Source of the DNA: Candidatus Acidiferrales bacterium
GTDB lineage: Bacteria > Acidobacteriota > Terriglobia > Acidiferrales > UBA7541
Length of the DNA: 64,000 nucleotides
Reading direction: 5' to 3'
Assembly: GCA_050014395.1 (NCBI GenBank)
Contig: JBEKDK010000004.1
Span: 9,765-73,764, forward strand
This document shows, in pieces, positions 11,344-52,887 of this stretch. The notes under the pieces were generated by a model that was not told where the DNA came from, did no database searches, and was given only the letters and a program-made list of their open reading frames with translations. The position numbers and the translations under genes are program-made. How positions within the stretch are numbered: the stretch's first letter is position 1; each line of letters starts with the position of its first letter.

Positions 11344-13143
11344 TTATGGCAGCGTGTAGCGCAAGTCCACGTAGACCATGAATAGGTGAGCATCGTGGGG
11401 TGCGCCGGTAGCGACGAACCACGGGGCGCGCGTTAGATACGACCCTTGAGTGATCAGCGAGACGGCACCATAGTTCGGGTTTTTGAAGAAGGTTTGAATT
11501 ACACCAATCGTCGCTTCCTGAATGGAGCGATTTTGGCTGTTCGGTCCGCCAGAGTACCCATAACCTTCAAGCTTGGTTGAGGTGCTGGCAGGATCCTGAT
11601 AGAAGGCACGTCCGAAGTAGTCTCCGCCATAGTATCCGTAGAGGAATGACTTCGGTGTGGCCTGCCATTCGAAGCCGGTGATCGTGGAACCGGCCTTCAA
11701 CGGGACGGGAAGAAACGAAGATGTGGTGGTGAGTTGCTGGACCACCAAATCCGGCCCCCCCGCTTCGAGGTACCGGCCGCCTCCATCGCTCCAGTAGCCC
11801 GTGCCGATCCAGTGGAAATTCTTCACGAGTTCGAGGTTCAAGTTCGCCTCGATTCCACCGCCCACCGACGAGTTCGTGACGCGACTTGTGCTGACGACGA
11901 CCGAACCGGGGGTCACCAACTTAAACTCACTCAGGAGGCCGGCGACATCGAAGTGCCACGCTGTATTGCCGACCTTCGGGTCGGCGGCGAGTTTGAAGAT
12001 GAAATCAGGCGCGACGTTGGGTGTCGGCGGGGTCGCAAGCATTCCTCCGCTGGTTGCGTCCACAGCGCCGGCCACTCCGCTAAACGCCGTCGGAGTTGTC
12101 GCCGCGCCGCCCAAGAACTGGTCGGGATTTTCGATTGAAAGGCCGATGGCCCAAGTGCTGTTGGGATGATAGACGAACCGAACTTGCGGCGCCCTCGTCC
12201 AAGTCAAGCCAACTTGGTAGTTCGTGTCCATGTCTTGTGAATAAAAGATGTCGCTGGGGTATGGTGACAATCCCTTTCTGTTTGGCGTCAGCATCGACCA
12301 ATCCTGCCCCGCGAGAAATTCGAACTTCCCCTTGCGGTAATCCGCGAAGTACACACGCATACGCAGGGAGTTCGAGTTGCTGGTGTTGTTGGCGTTTTGT
12401 GCGGTGAGGCCCAGGAAGTCGGCCTCAAGGTAGCCCGTGACGGTCGCGCTGCCTACGGGTGCGTCTACGCGCAAACCGATTCGCGAGTTCTGCGCGCTGA
12501 AACGGTCTTCGGTTAGCCCCGCGGCCGGCAAGCTGTTGTTGTACGGAACACCGGTGAAGCTGGTGCCGATGCCATTGCCGGTGCCCGTGGTGCGGAAGAC
12601 GTCCGTCAAGTCCATGAAGCCGAGCGGCGTGAATGTGGCGTCGCCGATCTTGAAGCTGAGCGGGCTGTGCTGCGGCGCGCCCGTATCGGCTGCCAACTTG
12701 GCCGATGACTTTGCCGTCCGCGTTGCCGCGGCCGTCGCGGCGGGTGGCGGCGGCGTGATGGCCATCGCCATAGCCGCCGGTGCGGACGCCGGTGCCGCTG
12801 CTGAAATGCTCGATGAAGGCGCCGGCTGTGCCGAGTTGCTGCTGCTGTTGTCGCCGAGCTTGGCCTTCATTTCCGCGAGTTCTTCTTGCTGCTTCTGAAT
12901 CTGTTCGGATTGCGATTGCACGAGAATCCGCATCTGATCAATCTCATCTTGCAAAACGGCGCTTGACGGCGCCGCACTCACCGGCGCGGTGGACGGTTGC
13001 GTAGTCGCCGCAGGCGTCCCGCCGCTGTTTGCCGTAGTTCCCGCCGAGCTACCCCCTGAATCTCCACCGCCGGGTCCGCCGGCATATGCCACCGGGGACA
13101 CGAGCACGCATAAGGACAACACCCAGACTGCAATGTTACGCAT
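11344..13143 (-). CDS. outer-membrane porin, probably phosphate-selective (OprO/OprP-like)
   Basis: Start set at ATG 13143 (AGGAGG 7 nt upstream) giving signal peptide MRNIAVWVLSLCVLVSPVAYA; low-complexity region and coiled coil, then a long beta-rich C-terminal domain; Pho-box array upstream. Confidence 0.55.
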   Translation of the reverse strand: MRNIAVWVLSLCVLVSPVAYAGGPGGGDSGGSSAGTTANSGGTPAATTQPSTAPVSAAPSSAVLQDEIDQMRILVQSQSEQIQKQQEELAEMKAKLGDNSSSNSAQPAPSSSISAAAPASAPAAMAMAITPPPPAATAAATRTAKSSAKLAADTGAPQHSPLSFKIGDATFTPLGFMDLTDVFRTTGTGNGIGTSFTGVPYNNSLPAAGLTEDRFSAQNSRIGLRVDAPVGSATVTGYLEADFLGLTAQNANNTSNSNSLRMRVYFADYRKGKFEFLAGQDWSMLTPNRKGLSPYPSDIFYSQDMDTNYQVGLTWTRAPQVRFVYHPNSTWAIGLSIENPDQFLGGAATTPTAFSGVAGAVDATSGGMLATPPTPNVAPDFIFKLAADPKVGNTAWHFDVAGLLSEFKLVTPGSVVVSTSRVTNSSVGGGIEANLNLELVKNFHWIGTGYWSDGGGRYLEAGGPDLVVQQLTTTSSFLPVPLKAGSTITGFEWQATPKSFLYGYYGGDYFGRAFYQDPASTSTKLEGYGYSGGPNSQNRSIQEATIGVIQTFFKNPNYGAVSLITQGSYLTRAPWFVATGAPHDAHLFMVYVDLRYTLP

Positions 13144-14941: not shown

Positions 14942-14983
14942 AAAAAAAAATGCCCGTCTATCGGCAGGAACCGATGATCGGGC
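14942..14983 (-). terminator. intrinsic terminator following the polycysteine sORF
   Basis: Minus strand GCCCGATCATCGG-ttcctg-CCGATAGACGGGC followed by A then U9. Confidence 0.8.
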
Positions 14984-15006
14984 GTTTTGTTCCGAACGCT
15001 AAATTC

Positions 15007-15102
15007 TTAGGAAGACATTCGGGTCGCACCCGCACACCGGCCGCTCGCCGTTCGACAACACGGCGCGCAACAACCGGTGCAACAGATGCGGCTCATCGAC
15101 AT
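15007..15102 (-). CDS. polycysteine leader sORF, 31 aa (MSMSRICCTGCCAPCCRTASGRCAGATRMSS)
   Basis: 7 Cys including three CC pairs; ATG lies 7 nt after a TAGGAT -10 element; stop 23 nt before a strong terminator. Confidence 0.6.
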   Translation of the reverse strand: MSMSRICCTGCCAPCCRTASGRCAGATRMSS

Positions 15103-15109
15103 TCGGCGA

Positions 15110-15138
15110 ATCCTACAGAGAGATCAAACGCGTGTCAA
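15110..15138 (-). promoter_or_regulatory. sigma70-type promoter TTGACA-17-TAGGAT driving the polycysteine sORF (probably leaderless)
   Basis: Minus strand TTGACA (15138-15133), 17-nt spacer, TAGGAT (15115-15110), then 7 nt to the ATG at 15102. Confidence 0.55.
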
Positions 15139-23399: not shown

Positions 23400-25622
23400 T
23401 TAGCGGTGATGACCTCCGCCACCGCCTCCGCCGTGGGAACCGCCGCCCCCACCGCCGCCACCGCCGCCCCGCGAACCACCGCCGCCCCCACCCCCGCCTC
23501 CGCCGCGATTACCGCCACCGCCGCCGCCGTAGCTGCCGCGGCTAGGAGCGCTCGATCCGCCACGATTGCCACCACCGCCGGGGTTATTGTTCGGGCGGCT
23601 CACCACCGGTTGGTGCATGTTGAGCGGCGGGCGGTAGTTGCCGGATGAATTGGAGGGTGTGCGCGCATTGCTGCCGCCTGCGTTGCCGCCGGAGGGCCGC
23701 GATGACGGGTTGAATTGCTGGTAGCCATTTCCGCGACCGACGGAATCGGGTGCGCCGCGATTATCGCCGTTGGTGTTTCCGGAATTCGGAGGCCGGTACG
23801 ACGGCGTTGAATTGCGATTGCCGCCCTCGTTGCCGGATGGACCGCGCTGGCCCTCGCCCGAATTCGTATCGCCGAATCGATGCCAACCTTGCGCCGATGC
23901 CGCTCCAGTGGCGGCTCCGCCTCGACCGGATTCGGATGCGGCGCCGCGCTGTTCGCTGCCTGCGGCATTCGCTCCGAAGCGCGCGCCATTCTCCTGAATG
24001 CTCTGGCGCTGCGCCGCGGAGGTTTGATCGAACGAGCGGGACACGGACGCCGTCTGATGCACGGAGTAGAAGTGTTCGTTATTCGCACGACCGGAAATTG
24101 ACGAAGGATTCGCCGCGCGGCCGCTGGCGCTGAGACTTGCGCGCGTTGGCGCCACGGGCATCGCGCCGGTGATGCGGTTTCCCTGGCCGATCATTTCGCG
24201 CGAAGCCGGCGTCACTCCGACTCGGCCCGCGCCGAAGCGATCGGCCGGGACGGTTGATAGCGCTCCGCGCAAGCGATCGTTCCCAGCGAAGCCGAGCGTC
24301 GAATAGCCGCCAGCGCGCAGCGGACCAAAACCGCCCGCGTGATAGCCGAGATGGTTCACGTCCTCGAATCCGAATCGCGCTCCGCCATACCACGGGAAGA
24401 AGCGGTCACCGGGCCCAAGCGGCATCCAGCCGTAGTGGCCGAACCCGAAGCCACCCCCGAATCCGCGGCCGAAGCCGAAGAACGAAACGTACGCCGGAGC
24501 CCAGATCGGGCGATAGAACCGGCCCCAGCCGAAGTTCACGCCCCAACCCCCGCCCCAGCCTCCGCCAAAGCCCCAACCAAATCCGCCATACACCGGGCCG
24601 GGCCACCATGCCCATGCGTCGCCGCAAAGCAACCAGCGGCCATAGTGATACGGCGCCCATCCCCACGACTCATTCGAAACCCAAGTCCAGCCGTAATACG
24701 GTTCCCAAACCCACTGGCCGTCTTGATAGGGCGCCCATCCCGGACCCTCCGCGGGCTCCCACACCTGGCCGTAGCCGGGGGCGTCAACCCAATTACCGTT
24801 GGCATCCAGGTCCTGCGTGCCAACGTAGTAGGGATCGGTGTCCTGCCAACTGCCGGCGCTTTGAATCTGGTGATCGCGTTGTTCGTTCCACGAATCGAAC
24901 GCGTCTTTTTCGGGGGCGTCGCTGATTTTGTACTGCGCATCTTGTCCCGCGCCCTGGATGGTAATCAGCTCGCCCTTCTTGACGTGCGTGCTGCCCTGCG
25001 GCGTAGAGATTTCGGCGGAGCCGTTGCGCACGATCACCTGCGTTTCAGTGTCGGAGAGGACGAGGATGCGGAAGCTGCCCTCATCGTGATTTGGGTGAAT
25101 CGCGACGTTGGGAGTGTCGATCTCGACGTCTGATTCGCTGTGCTTGAAAATCGAAAAGTTCACCAAGCCTTCCGCGACCTGCACTTGAATCTGTTGCTGG
25201 TCCAGCGCCGCGATGTTGGCCTGCGCGTGTTCGCTCAGTCGCAGGACGTCCGCGAAATCCAACTGCACTTCAGCTTGCGAGTTCGCGCCGGTGGAGATTT
25301 TGTCGCCCGGTTCGAGCGGCGTGTTCAGCGTCGCCGCCGACCAATCGCCGGAATCGCCGCGTTGCGTTGAGGCGTCGCCGCGAATCAAGCTGATGCGCGC
25401 CACGCCCGGCGCCGCTTGCTGCTGGCCCTGTTGCTGCGGCTGCGATTGATCGGGCGCGCCGGCCGGTGGTGGCGGGGCCTGCTGCTGCATTTGCCCCTGC
25501 ACTTGGTACTGGCCCTGGTCGGGCGGCTGTTGCGATTGATCGGGCGCTTGAGCGAGGATGCTGCTGGCGCCGAACAGCGCGATCGTCAAAATTGCGGTTG
25601 CGCTAAAGATTTTGGTCTTCAT
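23400..25622 (-). CDS. secreted FecR-like / Trp-rich (DUF6600-like) protein with poly-Gly tail, paralog 2
   Basis: Signal peptide MKTKIFSATAILTIALFGASSILAQA; FecR-like beta region; WxW-rich core (WGWAPYHYGRW); long low-complexity C-terminus. Confidence 0.75.
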   Translation of the reverse strand: MKTKIFSATAILTIALFGASSILAQAPDQSQQPPDQGQYQVQGQMQQQAPPPPAGAPDQSQPQQQGQQQAAPGVARISLIRGDASTQRGDSGDWSAATLNTPLEPGDKISTGANSQAEVQLDFADVLRLSEHAQANIAALDQQQIQVQVAEGLVNFSIFKHSESDVEIDTPNVAIHPNHDEGSFRILVLSDTETQVIVRNGSAEISTPQGSTHVKKGELITIQGAGQDAQYKISDAPEKDAFDSWNEQRDHQIQSAGSWQDTDPYYVGTQDLDANGNWVDAPGYGQVWEPAEGPGWAPYQDGQWVWEPYYGWTWVSNESWGWAPYHYGRWLLCGDAWAWWPGPVYGGFGWGFGGGWGGGWGVNFGWGRFYRPIWAPAYVSFFGFGRGFGGGFGFGHYGWMPLGPGDRFFPWYGGARFGFEDVNHLGYHAGGFGPLRAGGYSTLGFAGNDRLRGALSTVPADRFGAGRVGVTPASREMIGQGNRITGAMPVAPTRASLSASGRAANPSSISGRANNEHFYSVHQTASVSRSFDQTSAAQRQSIQENGARFGANAAGSEQRGAASESGRGGAATGAASAQGWHRFGDTNSGEGQRGPSGNEGGNRNSTPSYRPPNSGNTNGDNRGAPDSVGRGNGYQQFNPSSRPSGGNAGGSNARTPSNSSGNYRPPLNMHQPVVSRPNNNPGGGGNRGGSSAPSRGSYGGGGGGNRGGGGGGGGGGSRGGGGGGGGGGSHGGGGGGGHHR
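23403..23580 (-). repeat. coding low-complexity (GGN)n tract giving Gly runs of about 10
   Basis: Plus strand is a CCGCC/CCACC-rich tract; translation ends ...GGGGGGNRGGGGGGGGGGSRGGGGGGGGGGSHGGGGGGGHHR. Confidence 0.8.
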
Positions 25623-33371: not shown

Positions 33372-33491
33372 ATGAACGATCAAATCCAGAAGACGGCTTG
33401 CTGCTGCGGCGTGGTGTGCTGCTGCATTATGTGTTGTTGTGCGCCATGTTGTTGTATGCCCGCGTCTTCTGGGGGGATCCTGACGAGCTAG
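33372..33491 (+). CDS. polycysteine leader sORF, 39 aa (MNDQIQKTACCCGVVCCCIMCCCAPCCCMPASSGGILTS)
   Basis: 12 Cys codons as four CCC triplets (6 TGC then 6 TGT); flanked by complementary 10-mers; terminator 30 nt downstream; precedes sat. Confidence 0.65.
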   Translation: MNDQIQKTACCCGVVCCCIMCCCAPCCCMPASSGGILTS

Positions 33492-33520
33492 AACTAAAAA
33501 TAGCTCAACCGTAGTCAGAG

Positions 33521-33563
33521 CCCACCGCCAGAAGACGACCTGGCAGGTGGGTTTTTTGTTTTT
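33521..33563 (+). terminator. attenuator terminator upstream of sat
   Basis: CCCACCGCCAG-aagacgac-CTGGCAGGTGGG followed by TTTTTTGTTTTT; 60 nt before the sat ATG. Confidence 0.75.
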
Positions 33564-33623
33564 AGGAAGCGAAAGGCAAGACCGACCACTCAAAAACGAG
33601 AGTCGACCCGGGAGAACCGCTAG

Positions 33624-34826
33624 ATGACCGCCGCCACCGAAACGAAAAATATCGCCGCGCACGGGGGCACGCTCGTCAATCGCGTCGTTCCGCCCAACGC
33701 CAGGGAAGAAATGCGGGCGCGCGCCGCCGCACTTCGCCCGGTGCGCATTGACGCTCGCGCCGCAAGCGAGCTGCTGCTGATCGCCACCGGCGGCTTCAGC
33801 CCGCTTGAAGGTTTCCAAACCAAGGCCGCGGCGCAATCTGTCGTCGACAAAATGTCGCTCCCCGACGGCATGCTTTGGCCGCTGCCGATTCTGCTGCAAC
33901 TCACGCCCGCCGAAGCTGGGGATGTGCGCGTGGGCGAGCGCGTCGTTCTTGTCCTCGATGGCGAGCCATTGGCCACGCTCGACGTGGAAGATCGTTTCAC
34001 CGTGCCGGCCGACGAATGGGCGCCGAAAATCTTCGGCACCAGCGACGCGAAGCATCCGGGCGCTGTGGCTCTGCGCAACGCGGGCGAGATCGCCCTCGGC
34101 GGAAAAATCGAATGGCTAGGTGAGCCGACGCTTCCGGGATTAGGTGAGCGATGGCGCACGCCCGCCGAAACGCGGGCCGAGATTAGAGCGCGCGGCTGGA
34201 ATACCGTGGCCGGCTTCCAGACGCGCAATCCCGTGCATCGCGCGCACGAACACGTGCTGCGCATCGCGCTCGAAGTGACCGACGGATTGCTGCTGCATCC
34301 GCTGGTCGGCGAAACGCGCGCCGAAGATATCCCCGCCGACATTCGCATGCGCTGTTACCAGGCGCTGCTCGACAATTACCTGCCGCAAAAGCACGTGCTC
34401 TTCACCGTGTTGCCGGCCTTCATGCGCTACGCCGGTCCGCGCGAAGCCATTTTTCACGCGCTAGTGCGCAAGAATTTTGGCTGCACGCATTTCCTTGTCG
34501 GGCGCGACCACGCCGGCGTCGGCGGCTACTACGGTCCATACGAGGCGCACGAATTGCTGCGATCGGTTGCTGATCGCGGCCTGGATATCCAGCCGATTTT
34601 CTTCGACGAAGTTTTTTACTGCAATCGATGCGGTTCGATGGCCAGCCGCAAAACCTGCGCGCATCCCGACGACGCCCATCTCAGCCTAAGCGGCACGGAA
34701 GTTCGCCGCCGCTTGCGCGAAGGCTTGCCTTTGCCGGTGGAATTCACGCGGCCCGAAGTCGCCGCAGTGCTTGCCGAAGCGTTCCGCGAACCTGCCGGCG
34801 CAATCCAGGAGACGCAACGTGGTTGA
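33624..34826 (+). CDS. sat: sulfate adenylyltransferase (ATP sulfurylase, homomeric type)
   Basis: QTRNPVHRAHEH and GRDHAG motifs; about 400 aa with no APS-kinase domain. Confidence 0.9.
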   Translation: MTAATETKNIAAHGGTLVNRVVPPNAREEMRARAAALRPVRIDARAASELLLIATGGFSPLEGFQTKAAAQSVVDKMSLPDGMLWPLPILLQLTPAEAGDVRVGERVVLVLDGEPLATLDVEDRFTVPADEWAPKIFGTSDAKHPGAVALRNAGEIALGGKIEWLGEPTLPGLGERWRTPAETRAEIRARGWNTVAGFQTRNPVHRAHEHVLRIALEVTDGLLLHPLVGETRAEDIPADIRMRCYQALLDNYLPQKHVLFTVLPAFMRYAGPREAIFHALVRKNFGCTHFLVGRDHAGVGGYYGPYEAHELLRSVADRGLDIQPIFFDEVFYCNRCGSMASRKTCAHPDDAHLSLSGTEVRRRLREGLPLPVEFTRPEVAAVLAEAFREPAGAIQETQRG

Positions 34827-37364: not shown

Positions 37365-38189
37365 ATGCAGCGAAGACTTGCGTTGGACACCCCGCTCGCG
37401 GCCCCGCTAACATTGCACATGGACACCACTGCTCTGTCCCCCGTGGACGTACAAAGCGAAGTTCCCAACGACGTTCTAACCATTGATTTCGACTTTCTCC
37501 TCGAGATCACCAGCCGGATCGCCGCGGCCGATGAACTCGATAAAGTGCTCGGGCGCGTGGTCGATTTTGTTTCAACTCTCGTGAAATGCGATTCCTGCTT
37601 CATTTACATTCTCGAAGGAAAGGAACTTATTCTGCGCGCCTCAAAGAATCCTCATCCCGATATCATCGGCCGTCTGCGTCTGCACGTCGGTCAAGGCATC
37701 ACCGGATGGGTGGCTGAGCACAGAGAGCCGGTGACAGTTGCGCGCCATGCATCCAAGGATCCGCGCTTCAAAGTGTTTCACGAACTGCCGGAAGATAGTT
37801 TCGAGGCTTTCCTTTCGGTTCCCGTGCTGTGCCGCGGACGCCTCGTCGGCGTCATCAACCTGCAGCACAAGCAGCCTCACCATCACAGCAAGCGCCAGAT
37901 TCAATTGATTTCGACGATCGGGTTTCTGGTCGGCGCCGAAATCGAAATGGCGCGCCTGGAAGGCGAAAATTCCGAATTAAACGAGCAACTTGAAACGCGC
38001 AAGGTCGTGGAGCGCGCCAAGGGAATTCTGCAACGTGAGCTGCGCATCAGCGAAGAGGAAGCCTATCTTTCGATGCGAAAGCAAAGCCGCCAGCGGCGTA
38101 TGCCGATGAAAGATATCGCTTCGGCCATCGTGCTCAGCGACGAAGTGCATCGCGGCCGCAGCCCGGTCTCAAACGCTCGTACGGCTTAG
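37365..38189 (+). CDS. GAF + ANTAR domain RNA-binding antitermination regulator
   Basis: GAF domain (ITGWVAEHREPV, VPVLCRGRLVGVINL), coiled linker, ANTAR helices (VERAKGILQRELRISEEEAYLSMRKQSRQRRMPMKDIASAIV). Confidence 0.85.
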   Translation: MQRRLALDTPLAAPLTLHMDTTALSPVDVQSEVPNDVLTIDFDFLLEITSRIAAADELDKVLGRVVDFVSTLVKCDSCFIYILEGKELILRASKNPHPDIIGRLRLHVGQGITGWVAEHREPVTVARHASKDPRFKVFHELPEDSFEAFLSVPVLCRGRLVGVINLQHKQPHHHSKRQIQLISTIGFLVGAEIEMARLEGENSELNEQLETRKVVERAKGILQRELRISEEEAYLSMRKQSRQRRMPMKDIASAIVLSDEVHRGRSPVSNARTA

Positions 38190-51168: not shown

Positions 51169-52887
51169 TTAAAAAAGAAAATAGCGTTGCGCCATCGGCA
51201 GCACGCGCGCCGGCTCGCACGTCAGCAATTCGCCGTCGGCGCGCACCTGATAGGTTTCAGGGTCCACTTCGATGCGCGGCAGCGCGTCGTTGCGAATCAT
51301 GTCGCGCTTGCTCAGCCCGCGGCAGCGGCGCACCGCGGAGATTCTCTTTTTCAATCCCAATTTCGCCGGCACTCCGCCATCCAGCGCCGCCTTAGAAACG
51401 AACGTCAACGAAGTCGAATTCACCGCTGCGCCGAAGCTGCCAAACATCGGCCGATAAAGCACCGGCTGCGGCGTGGGAATCGAAGCGTTGGCGTCGCCCA
51501 TCGCGGCCCACGCAATGAAGCCGCCTTTCAGAATCATTTCCGGCTTCACGCCGAAAAACGCCGGCGTCCACAACACCAAATCCGCAAACTTCCCCGTCTC
51601 AACCGACCCAACTTCGTGCGCAATTCCGTGCGTGATCGCGGGATTGATCGTGTATTTCGCCACGTAGCGCCGCACGCGCAGATTGTCGCTCCCGGATTTT
51701 TCGCCCGGCAACGGCCCGCGCTGCTTTTTCATTTTGTCCGCGGTCTGCCACGTGCGAATCACCACTTCCCCGATGCGCCCCATGGCCTGCGAATCTGACG
51801 ACATCATGCTGATAGCGCCCAAATCGTGCAGCACGTCCTCGGCGGCGATCGTTTCAGCGCGAATGCGCGACTCCGCAAACGCCACGTCTTCCGGAATCGA
51901 TGGACTCAAATGATGGCAGACCATCAGCATGTCTAGATGCTCGTCGAGCGTGTTGACGGTAAACGGCATCGTGGGGTTGGTCGATGACGGCAAACAATTC
52001 GGCTCGCCGCAGACCGTGATAATGTCCGGCGCGTGTCCGCCGCCCGCGCCTTCAGTGTGATACGTGTGGATCGTGCGCCCGCGGAACGCGCGAATCGATT
52101 CCTGCACGAAGCCGGCTTCGTTCAGCGTGTCCGTGTGAATCGCCACTTGTACGTCGAATTCTTCGGCCACTCCCAGCGCGCAATCGATCGCCGCCGGCGT
52201 CGTGCCCCAGTCTTCGTGCAGCTTCAATCCGATCGCGCCGGCTGCGATCTGCTCGATCAGCGGCTCCGGCCACGACGCGTTGCCCTTGCCGAGAAAACCG
52301 AGATTGATCGGAAAGCCTTCCGCGGATTCCAGCATGCGATGCATATTCCACGGGCCGGGCGTGCACGTGGTGGCATTGGTGCCGGTGGCGGGCCCCGTAC
52401 CGCCGCCGAGCAGCGTGGTCACGCCGGCAGCGAGCGCCGTCTCCACGAGCTGTGGGCAAATAAAATGTATGTGCGAATCGATTCCGCCGGCCGTGGCGAT
52501 TTTTCCTTCTCCGGCGATCACCTCCGTGCTCGCGCCGACGACCATGCCGGGCGTCACGCCATCCATCAAATCTGGATTGCCCGCCTTGCCGATGCCCACG
52601 ATTCGTCCGCCGCGAATCCCGATATCGGCCTTCACGATTCCGCTGTGATCCAGGATCACAGCGTTGGTGATCACCGCGTCCAGCGCTCCGCCGGCGGCCG
52701 TGGCCGTGCTCGATTGCCCCATGCCGTCGCGCAACACTTTGCCGCCGCCGAATTTCGCCTCTTCGCCGGGCGTGGTCAGGTCGCGCTCGATCTCAATGAA
52801 AAGATCGGTGTCGGCCAAGCGCACGCGATCGCCCACGGTGGGACCGTAAAGGTCCGCGTACTGACGGCGTGGAATATTCAGGCTCAC
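51169..52887 (-). CDS. ureC: urease subunit alpha
   Basis: 572 aa; [21 protein letters not shown] active-site motifs. Confidence 0.95.

Follow-up and report, generated by a model that had tools for sequence, protein, structure and literature searches.

A candidate leaderless polycysteine attenuator upstream of a YeiH-family transporter operon in a Candidatus Acidiferrales bacterium

What is the role of a short open reading frame (sORF) that begins a few nucleotides (nt) behind a promoter, spends seven of its 31 codons on cysteine (Cys) and is followed, 23 nt past its stop codon, by a hairpin and a run of U residues? This question is raised by a locus in a 64,000-nt stretch of DNA from a Candidatus Acidiferrales bacterium (Acidobacteriota; GenBank assembly GCA_050014395.1, contig JBEKDK010000004.1, positions 9,765 to 73,764), hereafter called the window, in which the sORF stands ahead of the genes for a small membrane peptide of 46 amino acids (aa) and for a transporter of the YeiH family (peptide-yeiH). 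The answer proposed here, which is well supported and which we consider very likely, is that the leader acts as a ribosome-mediated attenuator which adjusts transcription of the peptide-yeiH operon to the supply of cysteine, in the manner of the classical trp/his leaders; we infer the start site, the coupling to translation and the response to cysteine from sequence features and predicted structures. An initial annotation of the window had already suggested a leaderless attenuator based on stalling at Cys codons and read out by an intrinsic terminator, and this core proposal is now supported by comparative and folding evidence. The elements on which it was built, namely the promoter with its 17-nt spacer, the ATG, the sORF with seven Cys, three CC pairs and five of seven Cys codons as TGT, the hairpin with its U9 tract, the peptide gene with its Shine-Dalgarno sequence and the YeiH-like gene, are all found where they had been placed (Table 1).

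Conservation of the leader and its promoter

All leader features described below are read on the minus strand of the window, and all energies are those of predicted folds. The Cys codons of the sORF read UGU UGC UGU UGC UGU UGU UGU. When Cys-rich ORFs are defined as having at most 50 aa, at least six Cys and at least two CC pairs, three that start with ATG are found in the window, whereas 100 dinucleotide-preserving shuffles contain 0.1 on average and never more than 2; ORFs as Cys-rich as the leader sORF are not expected by chance. A promoter scan found a single sigma-70-like site between positions 13000 and 16000, which is the leader promoter, matched at 10 of 12 positions. The leader hairpin escaped a terminator scan solely on account of the 3x3 internal loop in its stem, a feature that the scanner does not allow. 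A search of Rfam gave no match to the leader region at gathering thresholds, and a permissive search gave chance-level matches only (16.4 bits or less).

Conservation of the sORF upstream of YeiH-family genes in relatives had been set beforehand as a test of the attenuator proposal, and such conservation was found. Altogether, 34 leaders homologous to the window leader (nhmmer E-values 1e-15 to 1e-39; covariance-model scores 59-146 bits) lie upstream of orthologous peptide-yeiH operons in metagenome-assembled genomes of Acidobacteriota and in metagenomes, and the ORF, its reading frame and its start position are kept across all of them. These leaders fall into groups G1a (which includes the window), G1b, G2 (peptide MNRCSQACLCTPCCCTPNGWRGAAIRIL) and G3 (peptide MHRDTCSNQCALCCCPPDAWGGVRSE). 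In a wider inspection of the neighbourhoods of yeiH orthologues, covering 80 genome loci and 80 metagenome loci, about 50 of the genome loci and many of the metagenome loci proved to have a polycysteine sORF ahead of peptide-yeiH. The detailed counts given below cover 31 of the 34 homologous leaders, namely those that have readable upstream DNA or are aligned.

In each of these 31 leaders the start codon is preceded, at a distance of 6-8 nt, by a -10 hexamer of the form TAnnAT, which in turn has a -35-like hexamer 16-18 nt upstream of it. The -10 hexamer is TAGGAT in 22 leaders, TAGCAT in five, TATAAT in two, and TACTAT and TACGAT in one leader each; positions T1, A2, A5 and T6 are invariant and the AGGA core is not conserved, a pattern which favors a promoter element over a Shine-Dalgarno sequence as the reading of TAGGAT. 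The latter reading was rejected in view of the variants TAGCAT, TATAAT and TACTAT, which hold the -10 positions and yet lose AGGA. The promoter geometry conserved in the 31 relatives points to a transcription start at, or 1 nt before, A15102, and the leader mRNA is quite probably leaderless.

The Cys codons themselves are subject to a distinct codon choice. TGTTGT, which corresponds to codons 15-16, is invariant in all 31 aligned leaders, and the leaders encode Cys by 120 TGT versus 69 TGC codons (63% TGT), whereas the long ORFs of the window contain 6 TGT versus 50 TGC codons (11% TGT). The leaders thus favor the rare, wobble-read UGU codon, and its consistent use in GC-rich genomes provides a testable idea on the tuning of the sensor. 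Outside the Cys run the peptides of the four leader groups are quite different, and a codon sensor therefore fits the data better than a functional peptide.

The predicted RNA switch and competing explanations

When folded freely, the window leader is predicted to form a 1:2 hairpin, a small helix A and the terminator, with a z-score of -4.1 relative to shuffles. The 1:2 hairpin (15090-15025) folds at -42.0 kcal/mol, burying Cys codons 7-16; of the 21 leaders that were folded, nearly all are predicted to form its counterpart, and 14 of the 21 pairs in its two main helices are changed on both sides in the model alignment. Each of the 31 leaders analysed has a terminator that folds at -14 to -27 kcal/mol and leads into a U run; the sequence of its upper stem varies by group with pairing retained. 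For the complete off-state structure, 26 of 44 pairs change on both sides in the model alignment and the covariation score is 0.202, as compared to 0.158 for shuffles (0 of 500 reach the observed score) and 0.06-0.115 with the partners slid; these figures lean toward the structure because the model alignment was fitted to it. RNAalifold applied to a MAFFT alignment recovered five basal terminator pairs and nothing else, as this alignment is not structure-aware.

The antiterminator was modelled for a ribosome stalled on the Cys codons, at a stage of transcription before synthesis of the terminator 3' arm. In this state regions 2 and 3 are predicted to combine into a three-helix antiterminator of -31.0 kcal/mol, in which the 5' arm of the terminator is taken up by helices B and C; the segment 15042-14969 alone folds at -30.6 kcal/mol, which is more stable than helix A and the terminator together (-26.3 kcal/mol). 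The initial annotation had recommended constrained folding of the leader and had offered CCGAAUG:CAUCGG and GGAAC:GUUCC as weak candidates for antiterminator pairs. An antiterminator does emerge from such folding, although not from these pairs, which occur in no free or constrained fold and give way to the helices A, B and C listed in Table 1. An analogous design, in which region 2 takes the terminator 5' arm, is predicted in all 31 leaders, and in the stalled state this arm pairs mostly upstream in every one of them (mean probability 0.52-0.97). In the window the corresponding upstream pairing probability is 0.85, versus 0.40-0.49 when region 2 is shuffled (p about 0.02-0.03). A partner-swap test gave -32.9 kcal/mol for the cognate duplex of regions 2 and 3 in the window, versus -21.9 and -19.8 kcal/mol for partners taken from other leader groups, with 0 of 25 as good. 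The exact pairing of the antiterminator is moderately supported.

The attenuator would operate as follows. A sigma-70-type promoter (15138-15110) would start the RNA at or next to A15102, giving an RNA that opens with AUG and can do without a Shine-Dalgarno sequence, and a ribosome would translate the 31-codon sORF during ongoing transcription of the leader. With Cys-tRNA(Cys) in ample supply, the ribosome would pass the paired Cys codons, reach the UAA and cover the 5' strand of helix A, after which region 2 would fold back on region 1 (-42 kcal/mol), the terminator would take shape and transcription would stop near 14942. With Cys-tRNA(Cys) scarce, the ribosome would stall on the mostly rare UGU codons of the sensor and occupy region 1; region 2 (here from 15042 to 15015) would then pair with region 3 at about -31 kcal/mol, the 5' arm of the terminator would be captured, and the polymerase would continue into the peptide and yeiH genes. 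In a leader that is not translated the 1:2 hairpin and the terminator would both form, making the off state the default.

Several observations weigh against this attenuator. TAGGAT in the window does hold AGGA 8 nt before the ATG, and a Shine-Dalgarno function, combined with a promoter further upstream, is excluded only by the relatives and not by the window sequence alone. The preference for the cognate partner in the partner-swap test is seen in G1a, G1b and G3 and not in G2, and the margin over GC-rich shuffles in the shuffle test is small for many individual leaders. Column-wise covariation of the window antiterminator pairs across the family is not significant (0.067 versus 0.077 for shuffles), and the antiterminator helices stand in different registers in different leader groups; given this null result, support for the antiterminator comes from per-sequence folding, shuffles and the alignment-free partner-swap test. 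With regard to the regulated transporter, YeiH of Salmonella provides sulfite resistance under the regulator YeiE (PMC12880088) and yeiH of Bordetella is induced by excess cysteine (bioRxiv 10.64898/2026.04.22.720190); proteobacterial YeiH proteins are linked to sulfite resistance or export, and the induction seen in Bordetella is opposite in sign to the regulation proposed here. Finally, the organism is known solely from metagenome-type sequence.

Other explanations of the leader have to be weighed against these data. One of them, to which we give a low probability, retains an attenuator that responds through Cys codons and lets it act by Rho-dependent termination or by access to the downstream ribosome-binding site, with the hairpin as a constitutive partial terminator or a stability element. 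There is precedent in the experimentally studied polycysteine leader Ms5788A, which sequesters a Shine-Dalgarno sequence (bioRxiv 10.1101/834739), and among 41 leaders of an Acidobacteriaceae type, described further below, most are without an obvious intrinsic terminator and pyrimidines make up 80% of the 20 nt that follow the stop codon. In the window and in 30 homologues, however, a canonical hairpin and U run are conserved; region 2 is complementary to the terminator 5' arm, and the 46-aa gene has its Shine-Dalgarno sequence over 60 nt past the terminator, unpaired in the predicted leader folds.

An even lower probability is attached to the view that the sORF is an independent gene for a functional Cys-rich peptide, for example a metal-binding or redox-active one, that the hairpin is its terminator and that peptide-yeiH is transcribed separately. 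Such a function would agree with the good conservation of the peptide sequence within each group, for example that of G3, but between groups the Cys run alone is conserved, and the conserved C-terminal codons coincide with RNA region 2. Acidobacteriaceae versions of the peptide can be as short as 10 aa (MNRLSACCCR), and without exception the sORF immediately precedes peptide-yeiH or other sulfur genes, in the same orientation. In addition, the promoter scan found no other promoter-like site between the terminator and the downstream genes, beginning with the 46-aa gene, and the bias toward rare codons suits a stalling sensor and not efficient peptide production.

The least probable explanation is that the leader senses something else, by small-molecule nascent-peptide arrest or by binding of a protein or ligand to the RNA, with the Cys codons incidental to structure: the UGU/UGC codons do sit in the 1:2 hairpin and their conservation could be partly structural, yet no Rfam family matches, frame and start position are kept in 34 of 34 homologues, and leaders that are dissimilar in other respects again have runs of Cys codons ahead of sat, the sulfite reductase gene, yeiH and a porin-like gene, which is a signature of amino-acid-specific attenuation.

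Table 1. Coordinates of the peptide-yeiH leader, the genes it would regulate and the other polycysteine leaders of the window
Feature	Position	Strand	Details
-35 hexamer TTGACA	15138-15133	minus	sequence and promoter scan
-10 hexamer TAGGAT	15115-15110	minus	17-nt spacer from -35; 7 nt (tcgccga) to ATG 15102
Leader sORF, MSMSRICCTGCCAPCCRTASGRCAGATRMSS	15102-15007	minus	31 codons and UAA (stop 15009-15007)
Region 1, CGCAUCUGUUGCACCGGUUGUUGC	15090-15067	minus	5' strand of 1:2 hairpin; spans Cys codons 7-12
Sensor, six Cys codons	15084-15055	minus	three pairs (codons 7-8, 11-12, 15-16)
Region 2	15048-15015	minus	3' strand of 1:2 hairpin and 5' strands of antiterminator
Seventh Cys codon (codon 23)	15036-15034	minus	within region 2
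Antiterminator helix A (predicted), CCGAAUGU / GCGUUCGG	15022-15015 / 14999-14992	minus	encloses stop codon
Antiterminator helix B (predicted), CGGGUG / CGCCCG	15032-15027 / 14984-14979	minus	
Antiterminator helix C (predicted), GGCCGGUG / CAUCGGUU	15042-15035 / 14976-14969	minus	
Region 3	14999-14969	minus	3' strands of antiterminator; overlaps terminator 5' arm
Intrinsic terminator hairpin, GCCCGAUCAUCGG / CCGAUAGACGGGC	14983-14971 / 14964-14952	minus	folds at -18.5 kcal/mol
Terminator U9 tract	14950-14942	minus	one A between hairpin and U9
46-aa single-pass membrane peptide gene	14856-14716	minus	GTG start, GGGAGGA Shine-Dalgarno; putative first regulated gene
YeiH-family transporter gene	14669-13584	minus	PF03601, E 4.9e-78; putative second regulated gene
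Third polycysteine leader	13530-13300	minus	sORF VTIEIQTAILTCCRAHCADASSGGGKSIRGS, 13468-13373; directly after yeiH stop codon
sat leader	33372-33565	plus	peptide MNDQIQKTACCCGVVCCCIMCCCAPCCCMPASSGGILTS; sORF from 33372, terminator around 33520-33565

The genes under proposed control and comparison with known leaders

If the leader attenuates transcription in response to cysteine, the genes behind it should be connected to sulfur, and the available information suggests that they are. The YeiH protein of the window matches TIGR00698 at 125 bits, which is under the 232-bit cut-off, and to judge from this score it is a divergent member of the family; its relatives number in the thousands, the closest ones coming from Acidobacteriota, including Candidatus Acidiferrales. 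The 46-aa peptide gave no match in Pfam or NCBIfam. Since its gene immediately precedes yeiH at 73 of the 80 genome loci, and the encoded peptides carry the motif SLDxWAV...W.G.IKxVPW, it can be regarded as the product of a real conserved gene, and it may be a subunit of the YeiH transporter. Peptide homologues encoded upstream of this YeiH subfamily are small membrane proteins of about 28-50 aa.

At loci where peptide-yeiH does not have its own leader, the two genes are the last ones of a sulfite reductase / siroheme synthase operon on the same strand (among them L006, L011, L015-L017, L024, L030, L035 and L067; domains NIR_SIR, NAD_binding_7 and TP_methylase). At L071 and L076 a sat-type polycysteine leader (e.g. 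MKDCCQTMCCCCACNAACRMTPISGQRSFRT) is located further upstream, ahead of the sulfite reductase gene, and at L067 a weak covariance-model match stands directly before that gene. A different arrangement is seen at L044, where an insertion sequence element, whose transposase gene (rve integrase domains) spans 1598-2833, lies between yeiH and an intact group-3 leader (1103-1250). The position of the orthologues in sulfite reductase / siroheme synthase operons, some of which are led by a polycysteine sORF, places the transporter in sulfur assimilation, and this context in relatives, together with the ties of the YeiH family to sulfite and sulfate, indicates that the regulated genes most likely belong to sulfur/cysteine metabolism. 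On the other flank of the leader, pstSCAB runs divergently from 15260.

Induction by cysteine shortage, as proposed here, would suggest that the transporter serves the uptake of oxidized sulfur or acts as a sulfite valve coupled to assimilation. The leader thereby offers a regulatory clue to a divergent YeiH transporter and its unannotated 46-aa partner, which would apparently be switched on together with sulfate assimilation when cysteine is short, and this apparent regulation differs from the sulfite-export role reported in proteobacteria.

The leader-peptide attenuators of enterobacteria (trp, his, leu, thr, ilv and pheA) are built on a four-region RNA with 1:2, 2:3 and 3:4 pairings, a layout that folding also predicts for the window leader. 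The window leader resembles them in the placement of the regulatory codons in region 1, in the readout by an intrinsic terminator, in a default that would be off in the absence of translation, and in a stop codon positioned such that a terminating ribosome would block the antiterminator. It differs from them in that cysteine would be the amino acid sensed by a probably leaderless mRNA rather than one led by a Shine-Dalgarno sequence, that the predicted antiterminator is a stack of three helices enclosing the stop codon, and that the targets are transporter and small peptide genes and not biosynthetic enzymes.

With respect to the sensor, the closest parallel is found in mycobacteria, where leaderless polycysteine sORFs are cysteine-responsive attenuators that constitute a 'Cys ribulon' (Canestrari et al. 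2020, bioRxiv 10.1101/834739, Mol Microbiol 114:93). Shared features are consecutive Cys codons in a first ORF, probably leaderless in the window as well, that stands ahead of sulfur/cysteine operons, the presence of several leaders per genome (three in the window) and a proposed signal that consists of ribosome pausing for Cys-tRNA(Cys). However, those leaders belong to Actinobacteria and the present ones to Acidobacteriota, and no sequence relationship is expected. While the mycobacterial leader Ms5788A acts on translation, by unmasking a Shine-Dalgarno sequence (bioRxiv 10.1101/834739), the leaders described here have a conserved intrinsic terminator and a predicted antiterminator; the Cys run is C-terminal in the former, whereas in the latter Cys pairs are spread inside the 1:2 hairpin, and the target here is a YeiH-family transporter. 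The window element would work like the Cys ribulon and is not a member of it in mechanism or ancestry.

Two further groups of leaders are related in design. The uORFC-8-2 motif upstream of cysS in Rhodobacterales consists of a predicted upstream ORF (uORF), whose tandem Cys codons lie in a stem, and of an intrinsic terminator behind it (Brewer et al. 2021, PMC8632094). It shares this layout with the window element and, like the latter, is known from prediction; in contrast, it has only two Cys codons, mostly UGC, controls cysteinyl-tRNA synthetase, occurs in Alphaproteobacteria and is not described as leaderless. Candidate Cys leader peptides have also been reported upstream of cys and cbs operons in Actinobacteria, for which no terminator was found (Seliverstov et al. 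2005, PMC1262725). These too precede cysteine genes and are short ORFs in which Cys codons cluster in runs close to the stop, but their lack of a terminator brings them closer to the Acidobacteriaceae-type leaders than to the window element.

Among the papers searched, none described polycysteine leaders of this sort for Acidobacteria, nor this target gene or this combination of features. The window element is best described as a classical trp-type attenuator joined to a leaderless polycysteine sensor of the mycobacterial style, belonging to neither lineage, and the principle itself is known. The finding would extend cysteine sensing by ribosome stalling beyond Actinobacteria to a major and poorly studied soil phylum, and it suggests that the leaderless polycysteine design can be combined with a classical terminator/antiterminator switch. 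The alignment of 34 sequences and the corresponding covariance model could seed a new RNA/leader family.

Other polycysteine leaders and a possible wider regulon

Two additional polycysteine leaders are present in the window (Table 1). The first of these precedes sat (33624-34826), a TauE-family permease gene and a PAPS/APS reductase gene. The initial annotation had considered the yeiH leader to be unrelated to it in sequence and to suggest independent recruitment of Cys-codon stalling, a view that is not established: the covariance model of the yeiH leaders matches the sat leader weakly but from end to end (33414-33561, 36.4 bits, E about 4e-7), and an nhmmer comparison of the yeiH-leader family with the sat leader is collinear (25.6 bits). 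The matched stretches comprise the Cys-codon core CGCCaTGTTGTTGT, GATCC, the stop codon and the terminator, and the likeness could be due either to distant paralogy or to convergence on the same functional core.

The third leader has a terminator nearly identical to that of the sat leader, which identifies it as a clear paralogue of the latter. Its sORF starts with GTG and has an apparent G-rich, Shine-Dalgarno-like run upstream. The gene that follows (13197-11344) encodes a protein of 617 aa with a signal-peptide-like N terminus and a coiled-coil stretch, for which a faint match to the DcaP outer-membrane (porin) family was obtained (E 0.019); no similarity was found between this protein and the BBP2 porin of the window.

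A separate and shorter type of leader occupies the orthologous position in Acidobacteriaceae (L043, L048-L080 and L104-L153), about 250-450 nt upstream of yeiH, and encodes peptides that end in ...(A/G)CCC(C)R-stop, with ...CCCR-stop as the sole shared element. Masking of the Shine-Dalgarno sequence was considered for these leaders and rejected, as anti-Shine-Dalgarno pairing was no better than in composition-matched shuffles (mean z +0.28; 0 of 41 significant). They could employ a Rho-dependent mechanism or one based on access to the ribosome-binding site.

Taken together, these leaders could represent a phylum-wide, transcription-factor-free Cys regulon of polycysteine leaders in Acidobacteriota, a reading which we put forward tentatively and hold to be somewhat short of probable. 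It has three parts: the peptide-yeiH locus may use two platforms, one with the terminator/antiterminator of the Acidiferrales type versus the terminator-less one of Acidobacteriaceae; duplication and relocation may have placed leaders ahead of sat, the sulfite reductase gene, yeiH and the porin-like gene; and the divergent YeiH subfamily with its 46-aa partner may be induced by Cys starvation, opposite to proteobacterial YeiH. If this were true, the YeiH subfamily would be an uptake system for an oxidized sulfur source or an assimilation-coupled sulfite valve.

Some Cys-rich candidates were discarded. Minus-strand sORFs ending in ...RCCCC-stop by several group-3 loci were rejected, and the one that was checked (L028) is antisense inside the 3' end of a 701-aa ORF. 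In the window, a Cys-rich segment at about 45410 (minus) was rejected as antisense inside the BBP2 porin gene, and an sORF at 25393 (plus) lies antisense inside a long ORF (23400-25622) and is probably a chance occurrence.

Two other RNA-related features of the window were recorded. A GAF-ANTAR protein, that is, an RNA-binding antiterminator regulator, is encoded at 37365-38189 (plus) near tetrapyrrole and siroheme genes, and is a possible second RNA-level regulator of this neighbourhood. Finally, the Rfam model 5_ureB_sRNA (RF02514) matches positions 52440-52734 (plus) with 82.6 bits, in a segment where long ORFs overlap on the two strands; this match may reflect conserved urease coding sequence rather than a small RNA.

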